64,000 bases of DNA from Shigella phage sb4. Both the position numbers and the translations under genes were made by a program. Position 1 is the stretch's first letter; the number at the start of each line of letters is the position of its first letter. Below, piece after piece: positions 32,894 to 33,469 of this stretch. Below the pieces are notes generated by a model. It searched no databases and was not told the origin of the DNA. It saw only the letters and a program-made list of their open reading frames with translations. The stretch lies in the sequence record PQ666542; one strand, written 5' to 3'.

Positions 32894-33107
32894 ATTTGAC
32901 TTCCTCACCAGTACATAAATCATATTCAAATAAACGAATAGGTTCATGAATGCCATATCCTTGAACAGAAATTTCTGTCGTAGGATAAATTCCATCAATA
33001 TCACCCATGGTCCACGCTTCATTAAATTGCTGTTCGCCTGAATTACTAAACCACTCGGCGAAAGCATTTAACACATCTTTAGAACCTTCAATAATTATCT
33101 TTGCCAT
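32886..33107 (-). CDS. hypothetical protein
   Basis: 73 aa ORF. Confidence 0.45.
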   Translation of the reverse strand: MAKIIIEGSKDVLNAFAEWFSNSGEQQFNEAWTMGDIDGIYPTTEISVQGYGIHEPIRLFEYDLCTGEEVKYD

Positions 33108-33469
33108 TACAAGCTCTCAGTAAAGGTACGAGCGATAACGTCGCGCTGCTGTTCCGGAGTCAGAGAGTTAAAGCGAACAGCATAACCGGATACACGGATG
33201 GTCAGCTGCGGATATTTTTCCGGATGCTTAACTGCATCTTCCAGAGTTTCGCGACGCAGAACGTTAACGTTCAGGTGTTGACCACCTTCAATTTTAACTG
33301 TAGGCTGTGGTTCAATTTCAATTTCACGGGTGTGCAAACCGTAGAAAATTTCTGGGTCTACAAAAGAGTCCTCTTTAAAGGTTTTAGAAACAATAATTCG
33401 TGCTTGAATACCATCTTCAAAATAAATAGTACCTTTATGTGTGCCTTCAAGAATTTGATATGCTTTCAT
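33107..33469 (-). CDS. GrcA/YfiD-like autonomous glycyl-radical cofactor protein
   Basis: C-terminal ~60 aa ([60 protein letters not shown]) match E. coli GrcA as I recall it; 3' part of gene is GC-rich unlike flanks. Confidence 0.75.

Follow-up and report, generated by a model that had tools for sequence, protein, structure and literature searches.

Background

How does a phage gene come to carry, in one part only, DNA that is almost identical to that of its living host, and what would the resulting protein do in an infected cell? The question is raised by an open reading frame (ORF) in a 64,000-nucleotide stretch of Shigella phage sb4 (sequence record PQ666542), the whole of which is called the window below. 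The ORF lies on the minus strand at 33107..33469, has its own start and stop codons, and encodes 120 amino acids plus a stop, a protein of about 13.9 kDa. A preliminary description, made from the sequence alone, took it for an unrelated, AT-rich phage ORF that had been joined to a recently captured fragment of the E. coli gene grcA (yfiD), and suggested that its glycyl radical module could be a spare part for oxygen-damaged NrdD, the phage anaerobic ribonucleotide reductase. The gene is in fact already known: it is the Tequatrovirus ortholog of the characterised T4 gene vs.6, whose product is also called Y06I. The best explanation of the locus, which we hold with high confidence, is that it encodes an autonomous glycyl radical cofactor of the GrcA/YfiD type, and that the gene is an old phage grcA in which one segment has been replaced by E. 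coli DNA.

According to the account in PMC8683613, which cites Wagner et al. 2001, both YfiD and T4 Y06I restore pyruvate formate-lyase (PFL) that has been cleaved by oxygen, once a radical has been installed on them by the PFL-activating enzyme (PFL-AE). In the mechanism described for YfiD, the radical is placed on a conserved glycine, the protein docks on PFL that has been cut at G734, and catalysis is restored (PMC8683613; PMC12338860). Residues 61-127 of YfiD have the fold of PFL residues 693-759, while residues 1-60 are disordered yet required for binding to cleaved PFL and for efficient installation of the radical (PMC8683613). A different role, in nucleotide metabolism, was guessed from a Pfam match in a comparative paper of 2006 (PMC1524935).

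The gene and its parts are as follows.

33107..33469, minus strand: vs.6/Y06I ortholog, very probably a GrcA-type phage autonomous glycyl radical cofactor (from the ORF list and homology)
33292..33469, minus strand: phage-type 5' part (ORF nucleotides 1-178, amino acids 1-59), AT-rich, the diverged counterpart of GrcA's N-terminal half, which is disordered
33120..33290, minus strand: host-derived, probable conversion tract (ORF nucleotides 180-350, amino acids 61-117), with E. coli grcA sequence that codes for the structured glycyl radical domain
33170..33196, minus strand: glycyl radical motif RVSGYAVRF (amino acids 92-100), in which GGT at 33185-33187 codes for G95, the radical glycine
33107..33119, minus strand: phage-type 3' end of the ORF (..GAG AGC TTG TAA), from alignment to grcA and other phages

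Identity of the gene

The window protein is identical to T4 Vs.6 (Y06I, NP_049730) at 118 of 120 residues, and RefSeq labels the T4 protein 'autonomous glycyl radical cofactor GrcA'. Amino acids 1-120 match positions 1-121 of the PHROGs profile phrog_1209 (E = 1.4e-62); this full-length match and the conserved synteny place the protein in the T4 Vs.6 orthologous group that the profile represents. The radical domain is recognised by the Pfam model Gly_radical (PF01228) with 66.9 bits, the cut-off being 22.2. Among entries of the PDB, the solution structure of E. coli YfiD (6OWR) is matched at E = 8e-42 and residues 697-759 of pyruvate formate-lyase at E = 5e-26, with 49 of 63 residues identical (78%). 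In the alignments G95 of the ORF falls on G102 of GrcA and G734 of PflB (residue numbering from PMC12338860). The NCBIfam GrcA model TIGR04365 aligns with amino acids 20-120 of the 120. As a small stand-alone protein with a C-terminal radical domain, the RVSGYAV loop and a homologous N-terminal half, the product belongs to the GrcA/YfiD family (TIGR04365, IPR011140).

Database labels for this gene vary. The PHROGs v4 entry for phrog_1209 reads 'unknown function', and many phage annotations thus miss a characterised protein. GenBank phage records often name the vs.6 gene 'hypothetical protein', 'pyruvate formate-lyase' or 'ribonucleotide reductase subunit'.

A tract of host DNA within the gene

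The preliminary description had taken the last 60 residues for those of E. coli GrcA, with the motif RVSGYAVRF, and this was exact: amino acids 61-120 are 100% identical to GrcA 68-127, the motif included. Comparison of the DNA with E. coli grcA gave a stronger match than had been claimed, and nothing like the low identity that would have spoken against a host source. ORF nucleotides 179-363 agree with grcA at 182 of 185 positions (98.4%), and every complete E. coli genome searched (5426/5426) has a match to these positions at 95-99%. Of the three mismatches, two fall in the last ten bases of the ORF, and the similarity to E. coli ends at the stop codon. The core of the tract, nucleotides 180-350, is identical at 170 of 171 positions to an allele found in 1249 E. 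coli genomes, and at 168-169 of 171 in the remainder. At ORF nucleotide 219 it has C, a base shared with 23% of E. coli genomes, and at nucleotide 291 it has an A>T change of its own. Over the 171 positions the window differs from E. coli alleles at 1-3, from E. albertii at 8 and from Citrobacter at 12-14.

Base composition follows the same division. The GC content is 0.492 at 33107-33291, compared with 0.337 in the 5' part of the ORF and 0.348 in the whole window, in good agreement with the earlier estimate of about 50% against a background of about 35%. The GC step was confirmed on comparison across the window (z = 3.2), in which 0.9% of 185-nucleotide segments reach the same GC content, every one either at this place or in the tRNA cluster. 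GC content at third codon positions (GC3) is 0.46 in the 3' part and 0.20 in the 5' part. The host-like, GC-rich character had been extended to the very 3' end of the gene. It holds for nucleotides 180-350, but host-like DNA ends about 13 nucleotides before the end of the ORF, where a phage-type ending resumes; in other phage genera the ORF ends are of the GAG AGT CTA TAA type.

The protein sequence of this region is extremely constrained, and E. albertii, Citrobacter and Salmonella all encode the same 61 C-terminal residues. Their DNA is another matter. Over the 185-nucleotide 3' segment Salmonella and E. coli differ at 19 of 185 bases, and the DNA of Salmonella, Citrobacter and phage EC-F2, all identical over the 61 residues, is respectively 90%, 91-93% and 84% identical to that of E. 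coli. Since hosts with the same residues diverge by 7-10% in DNA, neither chance nor constraint on the protein can account for the nucleotide identity. The gene pflB was also considered as donor of the tract and rejected, at 79% identity compared with 99.4% for grcA.

A sharp step in identity to grcA, from about 50% to 99.4%, thus accompanies a step in GC3, and both junctions lie inside the gene, which is the pattern of a host-phage mosaic. The data support the conclusion that the 3' segment is host DNA, of recent acquisition on an evolutionary scale. Transfer went from host to phage, because the alleles of hosts agree with host taxonomy and the phage tract falls within the diversity of E. coli. 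Judging by the borders of the tract, host DNA probably replaced phage DNA in an infected cell, by homologous recombination or gene conversion. Such recombination would span only that part of the gene in which phage and host are similar enough for pairing, and the last 13 nucleotides, in which the next gene starts and has its candidate ribosome-binding site, may have kept their phage type for that reason.

The 5' border of the tract falls exactly on an inverted repeat with 5-bp arms (33273-33287), which reads AGGTG GTCAA CACCT on the gene strand; E. coli grcA has the same repeat. It was flagged as terminator-like on the opposite strand, and the count of such terminators was no higher than chance.

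When the whole 64 kb was compared with the 5426 E. coli genomes by megablast, no core-genome stretch other than the vs.6 tract (33103-33291) was found. The search also returned a match of 52 nucleotides at 24054-24105 to one E. coli strain (BE104), where it is unannotated, and a match at 41721-41813 to a 'tRNA-Tyr' feature in a listed plasmid record, with about 257 further records at 80-90%. The second of these coincides with 41222-42196, presumably a T4-type tRNA cluster, which alone in the window equals the tract in GC content (0.49 or more over 185 nucleotides).

The N-terminal half

The N-terminal half had been described as AT-rich and unrelated to GrcA. It is AT-rich, but it is not unrelated. 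Amino acids 22-59 alone match GrcA 28-66 in BLASTP (E = 2e-5), and a profile of 8 phage N-terminal halves matches a profile of 11 bacterial ones at E = 2.4e-6 (probability 89%). What cannot be aligned to GrcA is confined to the first 20 or so residues. The DNA before nucleotide 179 resembles grcA at about the random level, with about 50% identity. A motif of 24 letters in this half is conserved among phages and specific to them, and a full-length phage GrcA homologue is present in every Straboviridae genus sampled and in T5. Because the N-terminal half is homologous to GrcA, full-length homologues exist in other phages and both junctions lie inside the gene, vs.6 did not arise by fusion to an unrelated ORF. 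Of the proposed capture of a host fragment, the host origin therefore stands, and in place of the fusion there was an internal replacement: vs.6 is an old phage lineage of grcA that carries an internal host patch.

What the patch covers is the structured half, the counterpart of YfiD residues 61-127. In YfiD it is the other half that mediates binding to cleaved PFL and activation, and recognition by the diverged N-terminal half of the window protein may therefore differ.

The tract in other phages

The mosaic extends well beyond this window. Between Tequatrovirus and Mosigvirus 0-4 of 171 tract sites differ, compared with 18-20 of 178 in the 5' half and 10-35% in flanking genes, and nothing else in 3.3 kb of aligned flank is conserved as well as the tract. 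In both genera the E. coli-type tract is 0-2 differences away from living E. coli alleles. Jiaodaviruses of Klebsiella have a tract with the same borders (ORF nucleotides 181-351) and a GC3 of 0.59, which encodes an LLDAVEH variant. Its nearest relatives are chromosomal alleles of grcA, found on large contigs of enterobacteria in gut metagenomes, and the commonest Klebsiella-like grcA allele is matched at 97.6-98.2% by many Klebsiella phages.

The Jiaodavirus vs.6 genes compared (L005, L109, L125 and L157-L164) also differ among themselves. Across these 11 genes the diversity at third codon positions is 0.166 for the tract and 0.078 for the 5' half, and viruses that agree throughout the 5' half are set apart by 6-9 sites of the tract. 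The nearest bacterial allele is not the same for each virus: L109 is 4 differences from L099 and L125 is 5 from L107, and L109 and L125 differ from each other at 12 sites. All of the Jiaodavirus tract variants that are absent from Klebsiella-like host alleles (14/14) are G/C>A/T changes, which look like AT-ward decay of imported GC-rich DNA in an AT-rich genome.

Phage-type 3' halves without such a tract are found in Karamvirus, Pseudotevenvirus, Slopekvirus, Krischvirus and T5. They are 69-85% identical to any of about 130 host alleles, and their DNA diverges from that of hosts even where the protein is the E. coli sequence.

From these patterns we put forward, as a proposition about evenly balanced between true and false, that the DNA of the working domain is repeatedly re-copied from the grcA of whichever enterobacterium a phage lineage infects, and that it decays toward AT between events.

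Other homologues came to light in the same comparisons. The Krischvirus phages PTE-Eco09, Skers and MIZ4 (RB49-like) have a longer GrcA homologue of 137-138 amino acids, whose 3' half is 69-76% identical to E. coli grcA; in two of the three it adjoins genes of the nrdC cluster, outside the vs region. Over a short stretch, the Salmonella grcA tract has matches of 95% to more than 99% in two phage records, which may represent a third host type. A scan of IMG/VR for more vs.6 alleles gave 6 contigs, and scans with patterns diagnostic of Salmonella-type or Enterobacter-type tracts returned none. In one Jiaodavirus-like IMG/VR contig, L153, vs.6 is frameshifted after about codon 42 relative to KpV477, by disruption of the copy or by an assembly error.

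Predicted function and the nrdD gene of the window

Repair of PFL is the reading of function that the comparisons support best, because the protein is identical to Y06I at 118 of 120 residues and its working domain is identical to that of the host. Host PflA would install the radical on G95 of Vs.6, and the structured C-terminal domain would then take the place of the radical domain of host PFL that has been cleaved by oxygen at G734. The N-terminal half would help binding and activation, and production of acetyl-CoA and formate by the repaired PFL would resume.

T4 shuts off host transcription, and the infected cell is therefore without new host GrcA. A phage copy would keep fermentative energy metabolism and the supply of ATP going in microaerobic, gut-like conditions.

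The idea of a spare-part module agrees with this reading, but NrdD as its beneficiary does not. When Tequatrovirus NrdD (605 amino acids) was compared with Vs.6 by BLASTP, the best match had E = 2.6 and lay away from the radical site RRTCGYLG. No NrdD chain was found in the PDB at E ≤ 1e-3, although several glycyl radical enzymes of the PFL family match, and no NrdD model is among the NCBIfam matches of Vs.6. NrdD as the target was rejected as being without sequence support, the domain being identical to the PFL radical domain at 49 of 63 residues.

The window has an nrdD of its own (13016-14832, minus strand), which is split into three ORFs. Codon 263 is changed from AAA to TAA (stop at 14044-14046), one nucleotide is deleted near 13300, at about codon 508, and the substitution C579S lies beside the radical glycine (RRTCGYLG > RRTSGYLG). 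Compared with Shigella phage vB_SsoM_113 there are 24 non-synonymous and 45 synonymous codon differences, and no phage record is more than 96.7% identical to the window over 13200-14150. The neighbouring nrdG (12549-13019) is intact. Either nrdD is decaying here or the sequence is poor. An nrdD that looks broken beside an intact vs.6 speaks against a role bound to NrdD, though the defects in nrdD could be sequencing errors.

Genome context

The surrounding genes and signals are listed below.

33474..33477, minus strand: putative Shine-Dalgarno-like GAGG, 4 nucleotides 5' of the vs.6 ATG, overlapping the TGA stop of the upstream ORF
33476..33856, minus strand: upstream ORF of 126 amino acids, vs.7-like (phrog_2049, E = 4.7e-54; synteny)
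32886..33107, minus strand: downstream ORF of 73 amino acids, vs.5-like (phrog_1986, E = 3.7e-42; synteny with T4 vs.5 and fPS-65 g122c)
31828-32289: regB (synteny)
31275-31820: vs.1 (synteny)
34979-35380: denV (synteny)
35455-35646: end part of the lysozyme gene e (synteny)

The genes denV, vs.8, vs.7, vs.6, vs.5 and, further on, regB form a string on the minus strand; T4 and Yersinia phage fPS-65 share this order, and these neighbours mark the window as part of a T4-like (Tequatrovirus) genome. The stop codon of vs.6 overlaps the downstream ATG as TAATG, and GAGAG, 8 nucleotides 5' of that ATG, is a candidate ribosome-binding site for the downstream gene. A scan of 32300-35600 for promoters and terminators gave counts of 13 and 2, no excess over the 12.8 and 2.0 expected from shuffled sequence. 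Early promoters have been predicted in this region of fPS-65, which is syntenic with the window.

Alternative explanations

Several things weigh against the account given so far. The score of the window protein with the NCBIfam GrcA model, 153.4 bits, does not reach the equivalog cut-off of 170, because the N-terminal half has diverged. The function proposed for the protein would carry over from its T4 ortholog, and what the phage gains from vs.6 is something that we infer. Recurrent conversion, in particular, sits uneasily with the finding that the type of tract follows the genus of the phage and not the host on which it was isolated in the laboratory: Tequatroviruses isolated on Yersinia and Salmonella have the E. 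coli type, and Salmonella phage PSE-D1 has the Klebsiella type. Jiaodavirus tract variants coincide with host polymorphisms in 24 cases where 19.3 are expected, a test of low power, the 'Klebsiella-like' metagenomic contigs are without species assignment, and recombination between phages could spread a tract that had been acquired once.

This last possibility, of a single transfer from host to phage followed by spread of the tract among co-infecting T-even phages, with no ongoing exchange with hosts, is an unlikely alternative that nevertheless deserves serious attention. The association with phage genus and the non-significant test of shared variants fit it, and T-even genomes are mosaic in the flanks as well. 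Yet the tract has two or more independent host sources, of E. coli type and of Klebsiella type, and the same borders in both; the E. coli-type tract lies within 0-2 differences of living alleles in both Tequatrovirus and Mosigvirus; and in Jiaodaviruses the synonymous diversity of the tract is twice that of the 5' half and the nearest bacterial alleles differ. Ancient capture without any recent transfer, the nucleotide identity having been held by purifying selection and convergence of codon usage, would suit the 61 C-terminal residues, which are invariant across many hosts and several phages. We give it scarcely any credence, as protein constraint of this kind permits the synonymous changes seen in Salmonella, Citrobacter and phage EC-F2, the tract is only 1 of 171 positions from E. 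coli, and a GC3 of 0.20 in the 5' half shows no general convergence on host codon usage. A chimeric assembly, with host reads joined into the phage contig, would likewise produce a sharp step in composition and identity at a host gene. Its probability is next to nil. The T4 reference genome has the same mosaic and junctions, as do hundreds of phages that were sequenced independently: 80% or more of the ORF is covered in 925 phage records, and identity reaches 95% or more in 481 of the records that match. The ORF also reads through without a break in frame, and the last 13 nucleotides and both flanks are phage sequence.

With regard to function, the combination first proposed, an unrelated phage ORF fused to a captured grcA fragment and acting as a spare radical domain for oxygen-damaged phage NrdD, can point to the fact that oxygen cleaves both NrdD and PFL, each of them a glycyl radical enzyme. 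Other enzymes of this class might conceivably have spare parts as well (PMC8683613), a similar guess was made in 2006 (PMC1524935), and the Krischvirus homologue adjoins the nrdC cluster. Against this stand the homology of the N-terminal half to GrcA, the lack of detectable similarity to NrdD in pairwise, PDB and NCBIfam comparisons beside 78% identity to PFL 697-759, and an nrdD in the window with a stop codon, a frameshift and a high non-synonymous share beside an intact vs.6; the proposal seems to us very improbable. Vs.6 might instead be a decoy that soaks up PflA activity or binds PFL and so redirects the pyruvate metabolism of the host. The strong divergence of the N-terminal half, which governs binding and activation in YfiD, would be in keeping with such a role, and the rationale of repair for a phage is itself conjectural. 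T4 Y06I is, however, reported in the account of PMC8683613 to restore PFL activity and not to inhibit it, and the catalytic domain is identical to that of the host down to its DNA, which leaves the decoy a small chance. Repair of PFL by a phage GrcA with a host-derived working domain remains the reading that we prefer.

Significance

The gene itself adds nothing new, as T4 Y06I is one of the two founding examples of glycyl radical 'spare parts'. Its identification does correct a tempting but unsupported link to the phage anaerobic ribonucleotide reductase, a guess that has been in print before (PMC1524935). Apart from the 171-nucleotide tract, nothing of the E. coli core genome was found in the 64-kb window, and the borders of the tract recur, with the sequence of another host, in phages of Klebsiella. 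If the reading of recurrent conversion is true, a metabolic gene in the best-studied phage family is undergoing host-templated gene conversion that is still going on. In that event vs.6 would be a natural reporter of how often virulent phages that degrade host DNA recombine with it, and would show how sequence divergence gates exchange between phage and host. A search of full-text literature found neither the nucleotide mosaic of vs.6 nor recurrent conversion of the gene described, and an earlier mention is possible, the 2001 paper and the 2003 review of the T4 genome being outside the searched text.

Comparison with known systems

T4 Vs.6 resembles the window protein in length, genomic position and the E. 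coli-type mosaic of its 3' DNA, and differs from it at two residues (T47A and R73H in T4). In E. coli GrcA/YfiD (6OWR), residues 68-127 are the same as amino acids 61-120 of the window protein and comprise the structured domain with its radical glycine, and the C-terminal helix; in the N-terminal half, GrcA 27-66 is homologous to amino acids 21-59, with 33% identity. The window protein is 7 residues shorter than its E. coli counterpart, and its first 20 or so residues cannot be aligned. The radical domain of PflB (693-759) shares the RVSGYAVRF loop and has the same fold as YfiD 61-127 (PMC8683613), but it is part of an 85-kDa enzyme, whereas the window protein stands alone at about 14 kDa.

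The native phage homologues, T5 gp056 and those of Krischvirus, Karamvirus, Pseudotevenvirus and Slopekvirus, are the same small protein, often with an identical or nearly identical C-terminal sequence, and differ from vs.6 of the window in lacking a recent host tract. The nearest parallel for the mosaic is psbA of cyanophages, a copy of a host metabolic gene whose patchy GC content has been attributed to intragenic recombination between host and phage (PMC3900582). Gene, host and phage group are all different there, and the tract in vs.6 is a single block with defined borders, nearly identical to an allele of a living host.

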